Assembly: GCA_963850305.1 (NCBI GenBank)
Contig: CAWKKR010000008.1
Coordinates: 960,001 to 1,024,000, forward strand
From: an uncultured delta proteobacterium
Lineage (GTDB): Bacteria > Myxococcota_A > Polyangia > Polyangiales > Polyangiaceae
Length of the DNA stretch: 64,000 bases
Direction of reading: 5' to 3'
The notes beneath the pieces were generated by a model, which saw nothing but the letters and a program-made list of their open reading frames with translations, did no database searches and had not been told where the DNA came from. This document shows positions 4,051-44,134 of this stretch, in pieces. The position numbers and the translations under genes were made by a program. Positions within the stretch are counted from its first letter, which is position 1; the number at the start of each line of letters is the position of its first letter.

Positions 4051-5511
<1,461 letters not shown>

Positions 5512-24409: not shown

Positions 24410-25549
24410 ATGCAAAAGTCCAAAGTCGCCGTCATCAAGGTGAAGCCCGAAACCGTCCTCGACGACATCGCGCGCGTCGCGGAGCTCGCGGGAATGAAGT
24501 CCGCCCTCGCCGCGGGCACGACGACGATTCTGAAAGACAATATCTCGTGGCACTACCCCTTCCCCGGCGCGAACACGACGCCGTGGCAGCTCCAGGGGAC
24601 CGCGCGCGCGCTTCGAGGCGCGGGTTTTCAGGACGTCGTGTGCGTCCAGAACAAGACGGTCGTCACCAACGCCTTCAAGGGCGAGGACATGAACAAGTAT
24701 GTGCCGATCTTCGAGAGCGAGAAGATCCCCGTGCTCTACAACTTCCGCGAAGAGGACATGAAGTGGATCGAGTACCGCCCGAAGGCGCGCCTCCACGTCC
24801 TCCAGAACATCTTCCCCGAGGGGATTCGCATTCCGGATTACTTCGTCGGCAAGAACATCGTTCATCTGCCGACCGTGAAGTGCCACATCTACACGACGAC
24901 GACCGGCGCGATGAAGAACGCCTTCGGCGGCTTGCTCAGCACGAAGCGTCACTACACGCACAGCTGGATTCATCGGACCCTCGTCGACCTGCTCGCGATT
25001 CAAAAAGAGATCCACAGCGGCCTCTTCGCGATCATGGACGGCACGACGTGCGGCAACGGCCCCGGTCCGCGCACGATGTTCCCCGTCGTCAAGGATTACA
25101 TGCTGGCAAGTGCCGATCAGGTCGCGATCGACGCGGTCGCGGCGAAGATGATGGGGTTCGATCCCATGAAGCTCGAGTTCATCAAGGTGGCGCATGACGA
25201 CGGCCTCGGCGTCGGAGACCCGCGCGACATCGAGATCGTCGGCGCGGACATCTCCAAGGAGAGCTGGGGCTTCTCGGTCGGTGACAACGCCGCGAGCCAC
25301 GTGGGCGACATCATGTGGTTCGGGCCCATGAAGCGCTTCCAGAAGCTCTTCTTCCACACCCCGCTCGTGAACGCCTTCATCCTCGGGAGCGAGGTTTATC
25401 ACGACTATTATCGCTGGCCGCGCCGCGACAAGGGGGTCTTCGAGAGCTGGAAGCGCGGCACCTCGTGGGGCCATCTCTTCGAAGAATACGAGCGCGGCGA
25501 ACACACGCGCCCGGCGCGCAGCACCGCGACGACCGAAGCACGCGCCTGA
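24410..25549 (+). CDS. DUF362 domain protein
   Basis: ILKDNISWH, HLPTVKCH..TTTGAMKNAFGG, DQVAIDA. Confidence 0.85.
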   Translation: MQKSKVAVIKVKPETVLDDIARVAELAGMKSALAAGTTTILKDNISWHYPFPGANTTPWQLQGTARALRGAGFQDVVCVQNKTVVTNAFKGEDMNKYVPIFESEKIPVLYNFREEDMKWIEYRPKARLHVLQNIFPEGIRIPDYFVGKNIVHLPTVKCHIYTTTTGAMKNAFGGLLSTKRHYTHSWIHRTLVDLLAIQKEIHSGLFAIMDGTTCGNGPGPRTMFPVVKDYMLASADQVAIDAVAAKMMGFDPMKLEFIKVAHDDGLGVGDPRDIEIVGADISKESWGFSVGDNAASHVGDIMWFGPMKRFQKLFFHTPLVNAFILGSEVYHDYYRWPRRDKGVFESWKRGTSWGHLFEEYERGEHTRPARSTATTEARA

Positions 25550-25985
25550 CTAGGAAAGGGGGGTCTTGACCCCCGCGGCTCGCTTCGCGACCGCTCCCCC
25601 GCCGCCTTCGGCGGGCTCGTGCTTGCAGGGGGTCTTGACCCCCGCGGCTCGCTTCGCGACCGCTCCCCCGCCGCCTTCGGCGGGCTCGCTGCGCTCGCTT
25701 GCCAAGGGGGCCTTGCCAGCCTTACCCCCGCGGCTCGCTTCGCGACCGCTCCCCCGCCGCCTTCGGCGGGCTCGTGCTTGCAGGGGGTCTTGACCCCCGC
25801 GGCTCGCTTCGCGACCGCTCCCCCGCCGCCTTCGGCGGGCTCGTGCTTGCAGGGGGTCTTGACCCCCGCGGCTCGCTTCGCGACCGCTCCCCCGCCGCCT
25901 TCGGCGGGCTCGCTGCGCTCGCGTAGTTCCGCACCTCTTTGATCCCTTGGGGACGACGATGCTCGTCGATGCGGAACTACCGAGC
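25550..25985. repeat. REP/BIME-like palindromic array (5 units of ~69 bp plus a terminal module)
   Basis: Unit agggggtcttgacccccgcggctcgcttcgcgaccgctcccccgccgccttcggcgggctcg, between convergent genes. Confidence 0.9.
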
Positions 25986-30415: not shown

Positions 30416-30820
30416 ATGACTCGAAAGGACGCTCATGCGAAACATCCACGGATCCCGGACGTCATGGACTCTCGGTGTCGCGTTCTTCGCTTCGGGAGCC
30501 GCGGCGCTCGCGTACGAGGTGCTCTGGTTGCGCACGTTCTCCGTCTCGTTCGGGAACTCGACGTACGCAACGTCCACCGTGCTGGCGTGCGTGATGGGGG
30601 CATCGGGCTCGGGAGCGTCATCGGCGGGCGAATCGCCGAGCGGTTGGGCTCGCCCGTGCGCGCCTACGGGCTCGCAGAGATGTTGATCGGCATCACCGGC
30701 TGGCGTGTGCCGCGCGGCGTTCGGCTCGCCGAGCCGCTCATCGCGTCGCTCTACGCCGAACCGAGAATGGCGGGTCACCTACTCGTGCTCGCGCGAGTCG
30801 CGATCGCGCTTGCCGTGCTC
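30416..30820 (+). pseudogene. Fused MFS/spermidine synthase, 5' fragment only
   Basis: FFASGAAALAYEVLW.R.....FGNSTYATSTVLA, GLGS..GGR, YGLAE; frameshifted and cut at ~30820. Confidence 0.8.
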
Positions 30821-31233
30821 GACAAGCTCCGCATCAGCCGCACGACGTCCTCCCGCGACAGCACCGTCGGCAACCGCACCGGGCGCTTCGCCCGAACCAC
30901 GTCCTCCAGCCAGTCCATCTCGACGCCCAGCACGTTGCGATAGAGAAACAGTATCGCGCTGAGCGCCTGATTCTGCGTCGACGCCGACACGTTTCCATCG
31001 AGAGCGAGGCTCGACAGAAACGCCGACACCTCGGATTCCCCGAGTTCGGGCGGCAATCGCCCCCGGTGGAACCTCAGGAGCCGAAGCACCCACCCGGCAT
31101 ACGCCTTCTCCGTCCTGGGGCTGAAGTGCCGCACCCTCACCGCATGTCGAACCTTCTCGACGATCTCGTCGCGACGGCGCCAGGCCGCGACCTCCTGCCC
31201 GTCGTCGTCCGGCTCTGCCACGTCCGGGCCCAA
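30820..31233 (-). pseudogene. intI: Integron integrase, N-terminal SAM-like domain only
   Basis: VRHFSPRTEKAY, FLSSLA...VSASTQNQALSAILFLY, RAKRPVRLPTVLSREDV, then stops matching; no catalytic domain. Confidence 0.93.
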
Positions 31234-31399: not shown

Positions 31400-31440
31400 C
31401 TCGCATTGGCCTACGAAGACCGATCGAGATACCGTTAGCC
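31400..31440 (+). other. attI site (core G^TTAGCC at 31434)
   Basis: First GTTRRRY after intI, not preceded by an attC hairpin; complementary to R'' GGCTAAC of cassette 1. Confidence 0.75.
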
Positions 31441-31465
31441 AGACATCCTTCATGACCAGGAGCGT

Positions 31466-34131: not shown

Positions 34132-35462
34132 CATGCGGCACGGGTAGGTTGCTCCTGCGGGCATCGCGAAGGTGGATGTGGCTGGTGACAGAGGGGGCAG
34201 CGCGGGAGCCAGCGGGCGAGGAAGAGGGCGATGGCGAGGCGAGCGGTGATGAAGGAGTCGGCGAAGTGTCGCTCAGGCCGCGACGGAGATCTGACCGTCT
34301 CGACTGCGCCCTCCGGCCGAGGGGGGAAAAGCGCTGACGCGCTCGGATATGACGAAGGCGTAGCAACATAAGACGACGGAGATGTGGTGATGCCAGCCGG
34401 TGAACGAGCGACCTTCGAAGTGGTCGAGTGCGAGTTCGCCCTTCAGGTCCTCGTACATGCGTTCGGTGCGCCAGCGTTCCTTGAAGATCCGGACGATCTG
34501 CTTCCGGCTCATGCGTCGCGGCAGCGTGGTGAGCGTGAATTTCGTGGGCTTTGTTTCGCCATCGAGCCACTCGGCGACGAGCCAGAGCGGCTCGTGGTCG
34601 GCCAGGGTGAGCCCGTCGTCATGCGTCGTCTTCACGCGCACGAAGCAGAAGTGCGAGATCAGTTTTGCCTTCGAGCCATGACGCCAGGTCACTTTGCGGA
34701 ACGCTTTTCGACCGAGCGCATCCGCCAATTCCAGAGCGGTCATCGCGTCCCCGCGCGCTCGGTCCAGACGATCGAGTCGCACCACGCGCAGGCTCGACGG
34801 GATGCCAACGCCGAAGTCGAATCCCATCGACCGGCTCGCGTTTCTGAACTCCGAGCTCGCGCCGTACGCACCGTCGGCCAGAACGATGTTGCCCGGGATC
34901 TCGGCGAGCTTGGCGCGCTCGATCATCTCGATGGCAAGCTCGATCTTGGTCTTGAACGTGACCGCATCGGGAATTCGCGCCTTGGCACGAAGGGCGGCTT
35001 CCGTTGCCCAGTTCTTGGGGAGATAGAGCTCGAAATCGAGTGGGATCTGCTCGCTGCTCGTCGCCACCGCGAGGCTGACCCCGACCTGGCAGTTCGTGAC
35101 CTTGCCCGCCGATCCAGTGTATTGGCGCTGCACGCCCACGGAGTGCGAGCCTTGCTTCAGGAAGCCCGTGTCGTCGACGATCCATGTCGTCACGGGTTCG
35201 CGCTTCTGCACGGCGTCGATTGCGTACCGAGCGGCCTCGAGGCGTACGGCACGATCATCCCATTCGCTTCGGCCGAGGAAGTAGCAGAGCTTGCTGTGCA
35301 CGTTGTTCGTCTGGCTCGGGTCGGCGCACGTTCTGGCCGCGATCGGCTCGGCGCTCTTGCGCTCACCGTCCCCCAGGATCCCGAAAGCGTACATCGCGAA
35401 CGACTCTCGCTTCCGCCAGTCCTTCAGGTGAGTGCCGACGCGGCCGAAGAACTGCTCGAGTC
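34132..35462 (-). mobile_element. IS701-family element fragment (transposase 34273 to ~35460, 5'-truncated)
   Basis: GERKSAEP, WIVDDTGFLKQG.HSVGVQRQYTG..GKVTNCQ, LADGAYG, RWRTE..YEDLKGEL.LDHFEGRSF.GWHHH. Confidence 0.92.
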
Positions 35463-37586: not shown

Positions 37587-37869
37587 CGTTCTTCCGGCTG
37601 CAGCCGAAGAAGCACGCGAGGCAGCCCAATGGTACGCAGCACGCAATCTCGCGGCTGCCGCCGGATTCGAGCTCGAGATTCGCCGCGCCTTCGCTGAGAT
37701 TGCTGCAGCGCCAGAGCGTTGGCCGGTGCATCTTGAAGGGACACGCCGATTCCTGCTCGATCGATTTCCGTATGAAGTGGTCTATCAATCGCGAGCAGAC
37801 CGCGTCCTCGTGATCGCGATCGCTCACTGCAGACGACGACCGGGTTACTGGCGCGAGCGCGCCGGCTAA
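37570..37869 (+). CDS. RelE/ParE family toxin
   Basis: EAAQWY, PERWP, RFPYEVVY, IAIAHCRRRPGYW. Confidence 0.9.
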   Translation: MAVLLDVLPAAAEEAREAAQWYAARNLAAAAGFELEIRRAFAEIAAAPERWPVHLEGTRRFLLDRFPYEVVYQSRADRVLVIAIAHCRRRPGYWRERAG

Positions 37870-38017
37870 CAAGGCGTTGAACCTGCCGGGCGCTACTGGC
37901 TTTCTGCAAGCCCTCGCGGGGGTTCCCCTTCGGGTCCCCCGCTCGCGATTGCCCGTCTGCATCGTCGTCCTCCGCGCACCGCGTTTGCGCCCGCAGGTTA
38001 ACGCCGGTACGTTAGAC
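37864..38017 (+). other. attC9 (long family)
   Basis: GGCTAAC...GTTAGAC. Confidence 0.92.
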
Positions 38018-38401
38018 AGAGCTGATTCATCCGACCATTCTGGTTGTCGGAAGTAAGAATGATCCTGAGCTCGCGTGCTTTTCGGAGTGAGAGATGGCGA
38101 CCTGTGAGCTCGCAGGCTGTTGGGTTTTCTGGCTGGAAAGGCCTTTCCGACCTGGGAGCTGGCGACCTGCCGTGTTCCATACAGACGTCGCGACGGCGCC
38201 TGCGAGCCGTATCGTGCTTGCCGGCGTCCTCGATTTGGTCGGGCGAGCTGATGCGTCTCGGCGAGCTGCATGCGCTTCTGCTCGCCGAGAGGCTCCAGAG
38301 GTCTGACCATTGACTGCTGGCGCTGTCGCGTCCCGCGAAGCAGACCGCATCCTGCCGCGGAAACAGGCGTTCCGAGAGAGTCGCGCGAGCCTGGCCCGCC
38401 T
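38012..38401. other. Cassette 10, apparently ORF-less
   Basis: Bounded by GTTAGAC and complementary GTCTAAC; no convincing cassette-filling ORF. Confidence 0.7.
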
Positions 38402-38540
38402 GTCTAACTAGCCGCTGAACCTGACGGGCGCGGTGGCGACGTGAAGGGCGAGCGGCCTCGCTGCGCTCGGTCGCCGGCGAGTTGCGGGGCTTGTCCTCCG
38501 CGTGACGTTGCGCCCGCAGGTTAGCGCCAGTACGTTGGGC
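38402..38540 (+). other. attC10
   Basis: GTCTAAC...GTTGGGC. Confidence 0.9.
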
Positions 38541-38581
38541 AGACGAACTCGTGTCGGCTTGAAGCGTTGCACGCCGTTGCT

Positions 38582-38935
38582 CTATCGCTGATCGAGAAAG
38601 TCAGGCGAGGCGATGAGGTTGCGACGGCGGAGCGGTTCGGGGCCGGCTCGTCTCGCAAGCTCGCGTGTGCGGGGCATTGACTCGAGGCCCGGGTCGAGAA
38701 AGAGCGGTTCGACCTGACCCCCGATCGACGAGGTCCACGGCGGGGCGGACTTACCGTCGCGGGAAGCTAGGAGCTCTGCCAGCGCAGCGGCGACGACCAT
38801 CTCGCGCGGCGTCAACCCGAGCGGGCGATCGCATCGATCCCATTCCAGATTCACTCGACGCGCATCGGCGACCCATTGGCGCGCAGCCAAGAGATCTCCC
38901 GCGAGGACTGCTTGAACGAGGTTACGGAGCTCCAT
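38582..38935 (-). CDS. Partner of DUF6036 nucleotidyltransferase
   Basis: MELRNLV..LAARQWVADA..P.W..PEPLRRRNL; overlaps the reconstructed stop of the upstream gene. Confidence 0.7.
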   Translation of the reverse strand: MELRNLVQAVLAGDLLAARQWVADARRVNLEWDRCDRPLGLTPREMVVAAALAELLASRDGKSAPPWTSSIGGQVEPLFLDPGLESMPRTRELARRAGPEPLRRRNLIASPDFLDQR

Positions 38936-39457
38936 GATGAATTGACTCCCACAGATCATGAAGCGCGTACGACGCCTTGTCCAGCTGCGGCGGCGGCACG
39001 AATGGCTCCAGGCGAGTCCAGACCTCTTGAATTGATCCTTCGATTTGCGAGAGCAAGAGTCGAGCGTCGGCCCGGTCGATAGCGTCGTAGCGTCGCGCCA
39101 GGCGGCGAGCTTCATGGCCAGAAGCTGTTCCATCGGTGCCGCGCGTGCGAGCAAAGCATCGGACTCGTACAGGACCGCGCCTCCGGTGACGCTGGTCATG
39201 AAACCTTTGGCCCCGTCGTTCAGCCAGTCCTCAGGCAGGTCGAGGCCCTCGGCGACACGCGCGGCGGCTGCACGGAGTTTCGACGCTTCTGGCGCAAGGA
39301 AGTACGCATCTACATCTTTCGTCGTTTCTCTCGCATTGAACAGGAGAACGAGTGCGGCTCCCCCGACGACCACGATTTCCCCGCGCTCGCCCACCGCTGC
39401 AAGTTCCTCGGACAGCGCGTCGAAAGCCGTTTTGATCTTCGCGGCGGAGAGGAGCAC
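38922..39457 (-). pseudogene. DUF6036-like nucleotidyltransferase with 8-bp duplication frameshift
   Basis: VVVGGAAL..RETTKDVD, LPEDWLND, LLAMKL.AWR; tagcgtcg duplicated at 39080-39095. Confidence 0.82.
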
Positions 39458-39491
39458 GTCCGAGAACGTATCACGGCCCGTCCTTGTCGCT

Positions 39492-39566
39492 GCCCAACTC
39501 CGCGTTGCAGCTGACGAGTCCCTCGCATACGCTCGGGCCTCGCAGCTGAACGCGCGAACGTTAGCC
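39492..39566 (+). other. attC11
   Basis: GCCCAAC-tccgcgttgcagctgac...cgcagctgaacgcgcgaac-GTTAGCC. Confidence 0.9.
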
Positions 39567-39616
39567 GGATGCATCCTCACGGCGTGCATTTGCGACCGGT
39601 GCTATCGTTCTTCACG

Positions 39617-39865
39617 ATGTCGACCGAAGAACTGCTCGCCCAGGTCCTCCGGCTTCCGCGAGCCGAACGTGCGCGCGTGACGAGCGAACTCCTCTCGAGT
39701 TTGGAGGAGCCCGAAGATATCGTCTCGCAGGCTTGGGCCGCGGAACTGGAGCGCCGATCTCGTGAGGTAGCAGAGGGAACCGTGCAGGCGGTGGACTGGG
39801 AGCACGCGAGACGCGACCTCCTTTCCGAGCTCAAGGCGCGACGTGCGGCTCGTAGTTCATCCTGA
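39617..39865 (+). CDS. Addiction module antitoxin
   Basis: LRLPRAERA..LLSSLE..AWAAELERR..DWE. Confidence 0.88.
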   Translation: MSTEELLAQVLRLPRAERARVTSELLSSLEEPEDIVSQAWAAELERRSREVAEGTVQAVDWEHARRDLLSELKARRAARSSS

Positions 39866-40165
39866 AGCCACGCTGGAAGTTCGCGCAGCAGCGATCTGGT
39901 AGGACGATCAGCGCGACGGCCTAGTCTAGGCGACGATCTGATCCTAGAGTTTGATCGTGGAATCGAAGCCATCCTCCGTCGGCCTGCATCCTTTCCACTT
40001 TGGACAGGGGTTCGCGGGAGCCCGATCCGGAAATTCGTGATCGATCGATTCCCGTACTCGATCGCTTTCGAGATCCATCCCGATCGCTTGGTGATACTCG
40101 CCTTCGCCCACGCAAAGCGCCGACCGCTGTACTGGCTGTCGCGACTTGATGCGGGCCCCGGCTAA
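39843..40165 (+). pseudogene. RelE/ParE toxin, inactivated
   Basis: VRLVVHPEA..AAIW*(TAG 39900-39902); ctag-t-ctag insertion; downstream RFPYSIAF..LAFAHAKRRPLYW. Confidence 0.85.
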
Positions 40166-40310
40166 CTAGGCGTTGAGCCTGTCGGGCGCTACTTCCGTCC
40201 TGCAAGCCCTCGCGGGGTTCCCCTTCGGGTCCCCCGCTCGCGGTGCCGCATCTGCATCGTCGTCCTCCGCGCTGCGTTTGCGCCCGCAGGTTAGCGCCAG
40301 TACGTTAGGC
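40160..40310 (+). other. attC12 (long family)
   Basis: GGCTAAC...GTTAGGC. Confidence 0.92.
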
Positions 40311-40318
40311 AGACTCGA

Positions 40319-40702
40319 ATGCACTTGGGACTACGCCTCCTCTTCTCAGCGGTCTTGCCCATTGCGGCTGCCGGATGCGGTACGAGTGTGTCTGTCCCTG
40401 ACACTCACTACCCACCGTATAACCACCCCGTCTTCCTCACGAAGGATCTACCTCCGGAAGGAGCGCAGGTCGAAGTCATCGGTCGGATCGAACTCCGACG
40501 TGGTTGGTACGCTTCAATGGATCCACTGCTCGACGAGTTGGTGGACCGCGCGCGCCAGGTGGGCGCAGACGGAGTCGTGCAGCTTCGAACGGGTAGAACC
40601 GTCACCCCTTTCGCGTGGGCGGTACCATATGCGGAGGGGCTCGCGGTGCGCTCGCAGGGTTTTGACTATCGGAGCTCCGGCATGGTTGGTCAGTGGCGCT
40701 AG
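40319..40702 (+). CDS. Cassette 13 lipoprotein (YbjQ/heavy-metal-binding-like fold possible)
   Basis: AAAGC lipobox; EVIG.I..L..RARQVGADGVV..G.AVR. Confidence 0.65.
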   Translation: MHLGLRLLFSAVLPIAAAGCGTSVSVPDTHYPPYNHPVFLTKDLPPEGAQVEVIGRIELRRGWYASMDPLLDELVDRARQVGADGVVQLRTGRTVTPFAWAVPYAEGLAVRSQGFDYRSSGMVGQWR

Positions 40703-40781
40703 GGCACCATGCGTCCCCGGAAGTTCGAGTCGCCACGGGACGATCCATTGGCGCGCGCAAATCCAAACACGCGACGTCGCT

Positions 40782-40865
40782 GCCTAACTAGCCGCTGAAC
40801 CTGACGGGCGCCGGCGGTCGCTTTGCTCCGTCTGGCGCCCGCAGGTTAACGCCGGTACGTTAGGC
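40782..40865 (+). other. attC13
   Basis: attC1 family. Confidence 0.92.
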
Positions 40866-40877
40866 GGACGCAGCGAA

Positions 40878-41110
40878 ATGCCGACCGTCCACCGCAGCGG
40901 TCCTTACCGCTTCTATTTCTACAGTCACGAGCCGAACGAGCCGCCGCACGTGCACGTCGACCGAGACGACCGGACGGCTAAGTTCTGGCTCGACCCGGTC
41001 GAACTTGCGACAAATCTGGGTTTCCCCGCGGTCGAGCTGGCGCGGATTGAGCGCATGGTACAATCCGACAGGCATTGCTGCAGAGCTGGCATGAGCACTT
41101 CGGATCCTAA
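40878..41110 (+). CDS. DUF4160 domain protein (frameshift near 41070 fuses it to DUF2442)
   Basis: MPTV..GPYRFYFYSHE.NEPPHVHV..AKFWL.PV.LA; natural end LLQSWHEHFGS* lies in another frame. Confidence 0.85.
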
Positions 41111-41363
41111 ACCCGGCGAACGTATCGTCGACGTACGCATCGACGAGCACACGCTCACCACCGACCTGGCGGATGGGCGCACCATCACCGTGCCGCTCGC
41201 GTGGTTTCCGCGCCTGCTTCACGCAACCCCACAAGCGCGTTCAAATTGGCGCCTCGCTGGAGGTGGTTTCGGAATCCACTGGCCGGACGTGGATGAAGAC
41301 CTCAGCGCGCAGGGACTTCTTCGTGGTGCGCCCGCTGCCGCACAGCGATCAGGCGCCGCCTAA
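41091..41363 (+). CDS. DUF2442 domain protein
   Basis: LADGRTITVPLAWFPRL..GIHWPDVDEDLS..GLL.G. Confidence 0.92.
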   Translation: MSTSDPKPGERIVDVRIDEHTLTTDLADGRTITVPLAWFPRLLHATPQARSNWRLAGGGFGIHWPDVDEDLSAQGLLRGAPAAAQRSGAA

Positions 41364-41441
41364 CTAGCCGCTGAACCTGACGGACGCCGACGGTCGCTGC
41401 GCTCCCTCTGGCGCCCGCAGGTTAACGCCGGTACGTTAGCT
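41358..41441 (+). other. attC14
   Basis: GCCTAAC...GTTAGCT. Confidence 0.9.
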
Positions 41442-41682
41442 AGAGCTCAGTCCTCCGACCAATCGGATGGTCAGAGGTTTGATTTTTTCGGGATTGGCGA
41501 TGTTTTTCTCAAGCTTTGCAGAGAGAGATGGCGACCTGTCGATCTCGACGGGCTGCTGATGTCGACTTGCCGACTTCCAAGTAGACCTCGCGACAGCGTC
41601 TGCCGGTCGAGTGGTGCTTGTGCCGGCGTCGTCGTTCGGTCGGGCGAGCTGCTGCGCCGAGCCGGGCTGCCTGCCGTCTCGA
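41436..41682. other. Cassette 15, ORF-less, truncated; homologous to cassette 10
   Basis: Shares GAGAGATGGCGACCTGT and GGTCGGGCGAGCTG with 38012-38401. Confidence 0.75.
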
Positions 41683-41920
41683 TTCCCGATCAGCCGGCGC
41701 ACGGCTTCGGGACGATTTGGAATCGTCCCCAACGAGCGAACCAGGTCCCGACCCTCGGCCACCGCAACGGCGATGGTTTCGGCGTGTACGTCCATACCAA
41801 CGAATGCGGTACTCTTGCTCATGACCGGCTCCTTTGACCTGTAGCTCTGCGTTCTCGGTTCCGTGCCTCGAACGTAACCTACGACCTGGTCAACTCGAGC
41901 CGGTCCTTCCATGATGACTA
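41683..41920 (-). mobile_element. IS110-family element: left end plus ~46 codons of transposase (start 41822)
   Basis: MSKSTAFVGMDVHAETIAVAVAE..LGTIPNRPEAVRRL; ~98-nt leader beginning TAGTCATCATGGAAGGACCGG. Confidence 0.88.
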
Positions 41921-41967
41921 GACCGACGGCTAAAGACGAGACGCGTCTATCCGGCGTTCCGCAGAGA

Positions 41968-41997
41968 TTGCGACCCCATTCCTACCGTGGTAGGAAT
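41968..41997 (+). promoter_or_regulatory. TA promoter with palindromic operator
   Basis: TTGCGA-17 nt-TAGGAA; perfect inverted repeat ATTCCTACC-gt-GGTAGGAAT at 41978-41997. Confidence 0.75.
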
Positions 41998-42002
41998 TCC
42001 TC

Positions 42003-42631: not shown

Positions 42632-42640
42632 CGACGAGCG

Positions 42641-42839
42641 GTCTAACTTAACTAGGCGTTGAACCTGCCGGGCGCTTCTTCCGACCTGCAAGCCCTCGCG
42701 GGGGTTCCCCTTCGGGTCCCCCGCTCGCGATAGCGCATGTGCATCGTCGTCCTCCGCACTGCGTTTGCGCCCGCAGGTCGCAGCGGACGGCCAACTCGCT
42801 TCCGCTCGCGGCCCGCCGCTGAACCGTTGTACGTTAGGC
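42641..42839 (+). other. attC16, chimera of long-family and short-family attC
   Basis: Long family up to cccgcaggt, then attC8-like gcagcggac...GTTAGGC. Confidence 0.85.
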
Positions 42840-43040: not shown

Positions 43041-43240
43041 ATGAGTGACGTGGCCCCGATCGATCTCGCAGCCTATCGGCGGATCGTGATCGTGACGGGG
43101 GCAGGCATCTCGGTCGCCTCCGGTCTGCCGACCTATCGGGGCGTCGGCGGCCTCTGGAACAAAGTCGACGTCGCGAACCACGCTACGGCAGCCGCCATCC
43201 GATCGGATCCCGAACGAGTCTGGAGCTTCTTCGCTGAAGG
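43041..43240 (+). pseudogene. Sir2/CobB NAD-dependent deacylase, N-terminal fragment
   Basis: IVIVTGAGISVASGLPTYRG..GLW..DPERVW.F. Confidence 0.88.
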
Positions 43241-43279
43241 TGGTTCTCGCTTGAATCGATCGAGCGGGCATGATCTGAA

Positions 43280-43870
43280 GCGCTGAAGAGGCGTGCAGGG
43301 TCGAGTACCGCTTCCGTGGCGCCGAGAGGTACGTGGAGACGAGGCGCGTCGATCTCGCGATCTCCTTCCGCCGCCACGGCCCTTGTCTTTGCGACCACCG
43401 GGATGGACGGTGGCTCGCTCACGGCTGGGCCGATGCTCCCGCCGACTTCGGTGGTCGTCGCACAAGTCGAACCGTTCGCCAGATCGGCGACCACGGGTTC
43501 CGGCACTGCGCTCTTCCTCCACGCGGGGTGCGGGCCGAGGACGCCATGGAATCGTAGTAGCGGATGCCTGGGCGGAGAAATCAAAGCCGAAAGGCGCGCG
43601 AGCAGCTCGACCGGATCCATCCGCGGTGGGTTTCGCCGCGACGCCAGGGTCGTTGCAGTTGGATGGCGAACGCCGAACTCGCGATGGCAGTGGTGCCTCT
43701 CGACGCTCGAGACGGGCCCCTCGACGCCGACGGACGCTGAGCTCGGAAGCCTCTCGACGCCGACGGACGCTCCTCGACGCTCGAGACGTGCTGCCGTGAG
43801 CAGGCGCATGCGCCCGCCGCACTTGGGGCAGGTCTCGACGTCGATGCCGAAGGTTCCGCGGAGACGCTGC
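43280..43870 (-). mobile_element. IS91-like (Y2) transposase C-terminal fragments
   Basis: ELLARLSALISPPRHPLLRFHGVL and TFGIDVETCPKCGGRMRL. Confidence 0.7.
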
Positions 43871-44134
43871 TGTCGAAAAAATAGGCGCGCTCGGAAGGCA
43901 CTGCGAGCACCGTACGCCAATGAAACAGGCGACCGAGTGCACTGGACTTTCATCAGGGTTCTCGAAATCCAGGACCTCTGCGAGGCCGAACTTTCCGACG
44001 GGACGACCGCGAGCGACGTTCAGCAGATTGCCAGGGCCTCGCGGGCTCCGCGCCCATTGGCGTCACGATCGTGTTCGTCCCGCCGTGAGACGTCGATTGG
44101 CCCCACGAGGGGCCTGGGGTCGTCCGCCGCGTCG

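Follow-up and report, generated by a model that had tools for sequence, protein, structure and literature searches.

Two gene-less cassettes in a Polyangiaceae chromosomal integron carry copies of an 18-bp motif enriched across the host genus

Of the cassettes in Vibrio arrays, 6-49% are gene-less (Blanco et al., bioRxiv 10.1101/2023.11.21.568050; Boucher et al., 2006, PMC1382264). Gene-less cassettes include the "promoter cassettes" described in superintegrons of Vibrionaceae (Blanco et al., 10.1101/2023.11.21.568050) and paralogous families of non-coding cassettes in Vibrio (Boucher et al., 2006, PMC1382264). What such cassettes do is an old open question, promoter activity being the main function shown to date. 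Here, we analyze two gene-less cassettes, numbered 10 and 15, of a decaying chromosomal integron in an uncultured delta proteobacterium of the Polyangiaceae (genome G000, 6.26 Mb, ~66% GC). They lie within a stretch of 64,000 nucleotides, called the window below, at positions 960,001 to 1,024,000 of contig CAWKKR010000008.1 (assembly GCA_963850305.1), and coordinates without a prefix count from its first letter.

Like the promoter cassettes of Vibrionaceae, cassettes 10 and 15 are attC-bounded elements of a few hundred bases, without a conserved protein and located in a chromosomal array (10.1101/2023.11.21.568050). However, the Vibrionaceae cassettes are AT-rich, their promoter activity is perhaps partly spurious, and the available portion of that report names no shared host-protein motif, whereas cassettes 10 and 15, at 60-62% GC, contain a dyad found throughout the genus and no sigma-70 consensus. 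With the non-coding families of Vibrio they share paralogy within the array, restriction to the host lineage and the lack of a synonymous-site pattern (PMC1382264). The Vibrio homologues are >80% identical and common to several species (PMC1382264), but cassettes 10 and 15 are 71% identical, and three species each have their own unrelated family. Gene-less, paralogous and lineage-restricted cassettes are thus already known. What appears to be new is a host dyad motif common to unrelated gene-less families, for which there was no match in the literature searched, a search that would have missed a motif displayed solely in figures or supplements. We propose, with a probability of roughly one half, that the 5′ dyads of cassettes 10 and 15 are copies of this motif and serve as putative sites at which a dimeric host protein would land on double-stranded DNA.

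The host motif and the gene-less families that carry it

Cassette 10 (38012-38408, plus strand) reaches the R'' box of its attC and is complete, because its R' GTTAGACAG (38011-38019) is exactly complementary to its R'' CTGTCTAAC (38400-38408). Cassette 15 (41436 to ~41682, plus strand) retains the attC upstream of it and has lost its 3′ end and downstream attC by deletion. The earlier note on this DNA, made from the letters alone, had described the two as diverged homologues, and this was borne out by an nhmmer search of the whole 6.26-Mb genome (E 3.7e-14, 76% identity over 116 nt) and by 71% identity over 215 aligned columns. No other copy exists in the genome, so that the "family" of that note stands with two members, a further member not being found in the searches reported below. 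Its blocks lie where it had placed them, with GAGAGATGGCGACCTGT at 38089 and 41523 and GGTCGGGCGAGCTG at 38237 and 41638, and the ATG that the copies share does open a frame of 70 codons in one of them and of 18 in its counterpart. The positions of the colinear blocks are right, but their blockiness is only mild relative to uniform divergence (P=0.14 for the longest run, P=0.02 for the top two and P=0.32 in a runs test).

The hairpin that the same note had seen at the 5′ end of each cassette is present as a dyad in both, that of cassette 15 beating 1000/1000 shuffles and that of cassette 10 being equalled by 65/1000. Both dyads are copies of an 18-bp motif of the host, YGDCHA-N6-TDGHCR. The copy in cassette 10 (38032-38049, CGACCA-TTCTGG-TTGTCG) belongs to the GACCA/TTGTC variant class and that in cassette 15 (41456-41473, CGACCA-ATCGGA-TGGTCA) has the commonest core in the genomic motif scan. 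An exact copy of the dyad was also found just before the start codon of a host metallophosphoesterase gene.

The core GACCA-N6-TGGTC occurs at 51 genome sites, as compared with 3-14 at spacers 0-5 and 7-12, and ranks 12 among 13,312 word/spacer dyads; those ranked above it look like palindromes of repeat elements. It is in excess both between genes (12 sites, 0.8 expected) and within them (38 sites). A codon artefact was considered for the latter, as 37/38 in-gene sites share the same frame, and was rejected because synonymous shuffling yields only 10-14. Position-by-position tests gave the full motif, with its G, C and A invariant and 460 genome sites distributed over all contigs, against 61-155 at other spacers. 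The variant class of cassette 10 is by itself 11-fold enriched at spacer 6. The enrichment is therefore specific to spacer and position, as a host-protein site should be, and the excess of ~370-390 sites per genome points to a putative global DNA-binding protein. Per 100 kb, divergent intergenic DNA has 10.4 motif sites and tandem intergenic DNA 8.0, genes have 7.2 and convergent intergenic DNA has 2.2, the last being a depletion (4 sites vs 13 expected, P 0.003). Around intergenic sites there is neither a fixed -10 spacing nor an AT-rich flank.

The motif is enriched in 6/6 other genomes of the genus, in G437 by the spacer control (25 sites at spacer 6 vs 2 at spacer 9) and in five by a control with the pattern written backwards (15-28 strand matches vs 0-2 in G438, G439, G441 and G442; 5 sites vs 0 in G440). 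Genomes of other genera showed no enrichment in four cases (by the spacer control, G630 6 vs 8, G355 3 vs 2 and G154 0 vs 0; by the backwards control, G140 2 vs 2), and gave 3 vs 0 by the spacer control in G002 and a single site in G730; in this small sample of outside genomes, the motif appears to be restricted to the genus. Two further intergenic dyads are enriched in the host (GGTGA-N6-TCACC, 33 vs 1.7; TCACC-N6-GGTGA, 25 vs 1.5), together with a repeat-like one (GGGGT-N4-ACCCC, 128 vs 1.2).

The two arm differences between cassettes 10 and 15 (TTGTCG vs TGGTCA) each break a pair of the hairpin, and each falls on a degenerate position of the motif. Since they break the stem and spare the motif, the pattern is that predicted by a double-stranded protein site and not by an RNA stem. 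In the spacer, 3/6 bases differ, and at the local identity of 64% the motif would have been retained by chance with a probability of ~0.02.

Two gene-less families of other species in the genus carry the motif, and neither these nor the pair of cassettes 10 and 15 have significant mutual similarity. The first is a 281-bp cassette of G437 (L314:11702-11982 in G437:C163) with the motif at +17. It has no coding-like open reading frame (ORF) and no Pfam match, is unrelated to cassette 10, and its poor ORF coverage was already evident prior to the discovery of the motif. The second is a three-copy family of ~630 bp and 81% identity in G442 (L406:51-683 and 4765-5338 in G442:C135; G442:C149:1-98), present in 1/7 genus genomes and without codon-position bias or a Pfam match. 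Two of its copies carry the motif, at +76/+77, with 12/12 arm positions kept and 3/6 spacer positions changed.

Parsing of the arrays of five genus genomes gave 33 cassettes. The 5 that carry the motif are also the 5 judged gene-less, and the other 28 (17.6 kb) contain none. The association is significant by family (Fisher P 2e-4) and after leaving out the discovery family (P 2e-3). At genome density, a site would be expected with a chance of 0.02-0.05 per cassette of 280-633 bp and of 0.007 within the first 100 nt, where it is found in 3/3 gene-less families. A search for ACGTTRG plus the motif returned ten other matches, 0 of them in an attC context. One defined 18-bp motif in three unrelated gene-less families makes their function directly testable.

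A candidate landing site for a host protein

It is reasonable to think that a dimeric host DNA-binding protein would bind this motif. Such a putative protein would likely be an abundant nucleoid-type or global regulator, because genic sites are nearly as dense as those of promoter regions and have no fixed spacing to promoter elements. By carrying the motif, a cassette would bring a site into an array of foreign genes otherwise devoid of it, and might be retained for that reason. In the least certain step of the proposal, the protein could thereby control transcription into downstream cassettes, as known promoter cassettes do, and we regard this as the most likely option; alternatively, it may control recombination at the adjacent attC. 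In either case, shuffling by the integrase would relocate the control point within the array. The host genome contains one gene of the Crp type with a helix-turn-helix.

The distribution of the motif finds what seems its best analogy in CdbA, a nucleoid-associated protein of Myxococcus xanthus (PMC7156744), with >500 GC-rich, sequence-specific chromosomal sites, mostly not intergenic, and little effect on transcription (PMC7156744). A CdbA site as such was rejected for the cassettes, as the repeats bound by CdbA are direct and 4 bp apart (PMC7156744) and those of the motif are inverted, with a spacer of 6 bp; a link to integrons was not found in the available part of that report.

Several other known sites were tried and rejected. 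The operator consensus of GntR/LldR-type regulators, TGGTCNGACCA, consists of TGGTC, one base and GACCA, and the motif reverses the order of these halves and sets them 6 bp apart. Exact sites of this operator type number 5 in the genome and 0 in the cassettes, and the UCYGACCA repeats were likewise dismissed as a GntR operator array. A sigma-54 promoter at TGGCGACCTG would have lost its -12 GC in cassette 15. The arms of the motif are unlike the dif consensus, which speaks against an Xer/dif-type core site. As to the internal promoter that the earlier note had offered as one option, neither cassette contains a sigma-70 consensus, and other sigma factors would be compatible with the sequence.

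A number of observations weigh against a landing site. Binding at the motif is something we infer, and the protein is putative. The motif was discovered from cassettes 10 and 15, which makes their own match partly circular and leaves only the G437 and G442 families as independent. For the G442 pair, the motif had been seen before the copies were judged gene-less, the site lies beyond the preset 70-nt window and, at 88% identity, chance alone would preserve the motif in one case out of three. The automatic ORF filter called 31/33 cassettes coding-like, including cassette 10, the stretch of cassette 15 and one G442 copy; it failed to separate the classes, and therefore the gene-less calls rest on substitution patterns between paralogues and on blank Pfam results. 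Cassette classes were assigned by hand, with Pfam checks covering only some of the other 28, and the absence of the motif from these 28 is not significant alone (1.3 sites expected). No promoter signal stands at a fixed distance from intergenic motif sites, and sigma-54-like sites accompany 11/76 of them vs 8.6% of controls (P 0.06). The position of the site differs between families, at +17 to +21 in two and at +77 in the third. Finally, the motif accounts for 18 of ~250 homologous bases and not for the 71% conservation of the remainder.

A wider claim is possible though doubtful: gene-less cassettes might form a new functional class of mobile landing pads, with at least three independent origins, which import the site of a lineage-specific chromosome-binding protein and let the host organize or regulate foreign cassette DNA. 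If that were true, the motif would mark such cassettes as made from host DNA and provide a handle on cassette origins. If the motif is not bound, the finding shrinks to an ordinary pair of gene-less cassettes.

Alternative readings of cassettes 10 and 15

Cassettes 10 and 15 could be the remains of a long-decayed coding cassette, or captured host promoter DNA, with the motif as a leftover operator and the copies drifting apart. We consider this unlikely, although it has points in its favor. Decay is seen elsewhere in the array (truncated intI; stubs of IS701, IS110 and ISCR; broken toxin-antitoxin and SIR2 cassettes), and some gene-less cassettes are reported to stem from degenerated genes (Blanco et al., 10.1101/2023.11.21.568050). 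One 59-nt block, read in the frame of the 70-codon ORF, has substitutions distributed 5/3/8 by codon position. Conservation is not clearly blocky, and an ATG of cassette 10 follows the extended site by 7 nt, the corresponding distance at the host metallophosphoesterase gene being 6 nt. However, no gapless block of the alignment shows a synonymous bias in any frame of either strand, the best frame having 4 synonymous vs 8 non-synonymous changes, and in codon usage relative to the host all six frames of both copies score at or below -0.16, under all 18 array genes (-0.13 to 0.30). Pfam had nothing of note for the 12 read-through frames, the two cassette ORFs searched had no protein homologue, and an Atlas protein search reached a top score of 0.85, which is lead level only. 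Moreover, cassette 15 has no matching ATG, and decay would not explain a motif kept in three unrelated families.

The same results bear on how the cassettes should be described. The earlier note had predicted that the element acts as nucleic acid and not as protein, and had named a conserved reading frame with synonymous-biased change as what would speak against it; substitution pattern, codon usage, Pfam and homologue searches all support its view, and no such frame was seen. Its term "ORF-less" holds for the lack of a synonymous pattern and of a protein homologue but not for ORF length, since cassette 10 contains ORFs of 70 codons (from the shared ATG), 84 codons (from an ATG at 38059) and 107 codons (minus strand). 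Cassette 10 thus falls outside the published length limits for gene-less cassettes, an ORF <210 bp (Blanco et al., 10.1101/2023.11.21.568050) or <150 bp (Boucher et al., PMC1382264). These limits were derived from AT-rich Vibrio DNA, and long ORFs are common by chance at 62% GC. Defined instead by the lack of a protein homologue and of a synonymous-site pattern between paralogues, cassettes 10 and 15 are gene-less. Short-read contigs from three soil runs of one study, possibly of the same source as the window, match 38009-38159, 38164-38314 and 41438-41667 gap-free with 0-1 differences, leaving 38315-38400 uncovered; frame breaks in the covered parts are therefore not assembly indels. On the minus strand of cassette 10 (38021-38396), there is one stop across three frames where 4.5 are expected (P 0.024), a scarcity absent from cassette 15 and present in the G442 gene-less family.

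It is quite improbable, in our estimate, that the cassettes are functionless or selfish, long resident in the genus, and that they gained the motif passively through a genome-wide enrichment process. A mutational or recombinational drive could enrich the motif in genes too (7.2 vs 8.0-10.4 per 100 kb in tandem and divergent DNA), and selfishness has been listed as one possibility for non-coding cassettes (Boucher et al., PMC1382264). The low chance of a site per cassette, particularly within the first 100 nt, stands against it when 3/3 families have one, and the depletion in convergent intergenic DNA suggests that position matters.

Long residence would fit the finding that no homologue of cassettes 10 and 15 was encountered outside the host genome in samples of the family, order and phylum or in sequence collections, in searches that scored two candidates per genome for DNA, required exact patterns in collection scans and may have missed distant relatives. 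Cassette 10 had weak partial matches in 15 of 400 genomes of the phylum (E >=7e-7), none supported by a hidden Markov model of the two copies, and 0 at E<=1e-5 in 382 genomes of the family. Cassette 15 had weak matches in 28 of these 382 (E >=9e-6), and 0 of the 14 non-self loci inspected had an attC. An attC-anchored 5′ pattern with 3 mismatches permitted found nothing in 400 genomes of the order. A sequence-only model, R1, matched weakly in 19 of 140 relatives (E >=3e-4), the 14 loci inspected all lying within open frames of 179-1078 codons without attC, and reached a best E of 0.003 in 5 array-bearing genomes. A two-block pattern retrieved 116 stretches from a metagenome collection, 0 of them at E<1; patterns retrieved 8 stretches from a genome collection (best E 0.07) and 5 and at least 120 from a viral collection (best E 5e-4, on a short piece). 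Searches of plasmids and phages were blank or trivial, and the viral contigs scanned had no attC of this type. Direct scanning of the arrays of G437, G440, G630, G442 and G438 and of contigs of G520 and G125 bearing an insertion sequence (IS) revealed no third member.

The earlier note had also offered a structured RNA, and cassettes transcribed from the plus strand into such an RNA would have a precedent in Xanthomonas, for which a review reports ORF-less cassettes encoding regulatory RNA. This we regard as no less improbable than passive gain. The body of cassette 10 folds better than expected on the plus strand (z -2.8 to -3.2; -1.0 to -1.3 on the minus strand), but the z of ~-3 is owed in large part to a strong 11-bp hairpin in its 3′ part (38256-38290, plus strand; z -3.5 for 38225-38320, pair probability 1.0), which cassette 15 lost, being cut before the right arm. 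The shared region alone has z -0.2 in cassette 10 and -1.2 in cassette 15, and 1/12 coding cassettes reaches -2.6. What seems the best single point for an RNA is a small hairpin (38101-38116) past the ATG block, within the stretch of 38089-38116 (plus strand) that begins with the conserved GAGAGATGGCGACCTGT block: its pairing is kept despite a paired 2-nt insertion, with pair probabilities of 0.43 and 0.55. The invariant blocks TCCGACC and GGTCGGG are complementary, and in one alignment a 9-bp helix with four double changes was unequalled in 300 column shuffles. That helix, however, was chosen post hoc, is gone after realignment and has an ensemble probability of 0.00-0.12 in single sequences.

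Covariation over two sequences varies with the alignment: when the differing letters were re-dealt, the observed energy was equalled in 0-16 of 35 trials, depending on the alignment. The two-sequence consensus has a structure conservation index of 0.51 and an alignment z of ~-2, and long-range helices have an ensemble probability of 0.00-0.02; an RNA switch built from them was rejected for this low probability and its dependence on the alignment. The covariance models of Rfam 15 had no match at E<=5 inside either cassette, and ARAGORN found no tRNA or tmRNA in them. With no Rfam match, no robust covariation and uncompensated mismatches in the 5′ hairpin, the RNA option fared poorly, whereas the DNA-site option of the same note has direct support, since the 5′ dyad belongs to a motif of genomes across the genus and is met again in gene-less cassettes of unrelated families. 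A remnant of a group IIC-attC intron was dismissed, as no Rfam intron model matched and cassette 10 has its own intact R'/R'' pair. A "decoy", as the note had worded it, is unlikely because one extra site among ~460 would titrate little.

The decaying array and its IS110 remnant

The window contains ~17 parsed cassettes bounded by attC, of which many encode toxin-antitoxin pairs or small membrane proteins, interspersed with pieces of IS701, IS110 and ISCR type. The array stands beside an integrase, as expected of integron cassettes: the N-terminal part of a truncated integron integrase lies at 30775-31233 on the minus strand (TIGR02249, E 3e-36, profile positions 2-119 of 315; Phage_int_SAM_4), and relatives G440 and G442 have intact integron integrase matches. 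The likely attI crossover and array start (31433-31441, plus strand) was assigned by position, from a GTTAGCC core between intI and the first cassette. The attC sites upstream of cassette 10 (37862-38017; repeat families D3, D4, D6 and D7), of cassette 10 itself (38400-38540) and upstream of cassette 15 (41356-41441), all on the plus strand, were defined by repeat families and the array parse.

Cassette 15 adjoins the left end of an IS110-family element with the first ~45 codons of its transposase (41683-41918, minus strand), recognized by tblastn to annotated IS110 transposases. Just past the left end of the IS, the remnant TAGACCG (41919-41925) matches the R'' CGGTCTAAC of the next cassette (42639-42647), and a search of 120 family genomes found R'-like sequence adjoining 4/4 related IS copies, in three genomes (L339-L342). 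In the simplest history, an IS110-family element would have inserted into the attC of cassette 15 at the crossover core, and a later deletion would have removed the 3′ end of the cassette together with the attC and the greater part of the IS. The related elements are inserted at the R' core of attC, in an orientation opposite to the cassettes, in 4/4 cases.

Insertion into attC is known for the IS1111 elements ISKpn4 and ISPst6 (PMC11187229), which likewise place an IS110/IS1111-family transposase gene within attC (PMC11187229). In contrast to these elements, the present one has its junction at the R' crossover core, and the nearest annotated proteins are labelled IS110 family. The elements found here may form a group that targets attC but does not belong to the IS1111-attC set described so far. 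That the cassette body might itself be an end or non-coding region of an IS110 element was rejected, as the four related loci do not align to cassette 15; they align solely to the stub at 41683-41925, to attC and to a palindrome at a toxin-antitoxin promoter.

Signs of decay in the array include the truncated intI (30775-31233), an IS701 insertion, an ISCR-type stub, a truncated SIR2 gene, broken nucleotidyltransferase and ParE-like cassettes, and a fused DUF4160/DUF2442 frame. Decayed stretches of the window are 30775-31233, 34273-35394, 38582-39500, 39850-40160, 40878-41363 and 43041-43953. Isolated attC sites occur distant from the main array (G000:C8:1260300-1261330 and C4:557640). At several attC, a short stretch duplicates the R'' box (e.g., CTAACTTAAC; window 32837 and 42644, C8:1260301 and 1261180), possibly as scars of atypical recombination. 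A tandem array of 69-nt repeats with palindromic units lies between two genes at 25490-25922. The palindrome TTCCTACC-AC-GGTAGGAA occurs at 41980-42000 and at L339:2946-2966, upstream of a small gene paired with a PIN-like gene; it is conserved in two genera and is likely the operator of the antitoxin.

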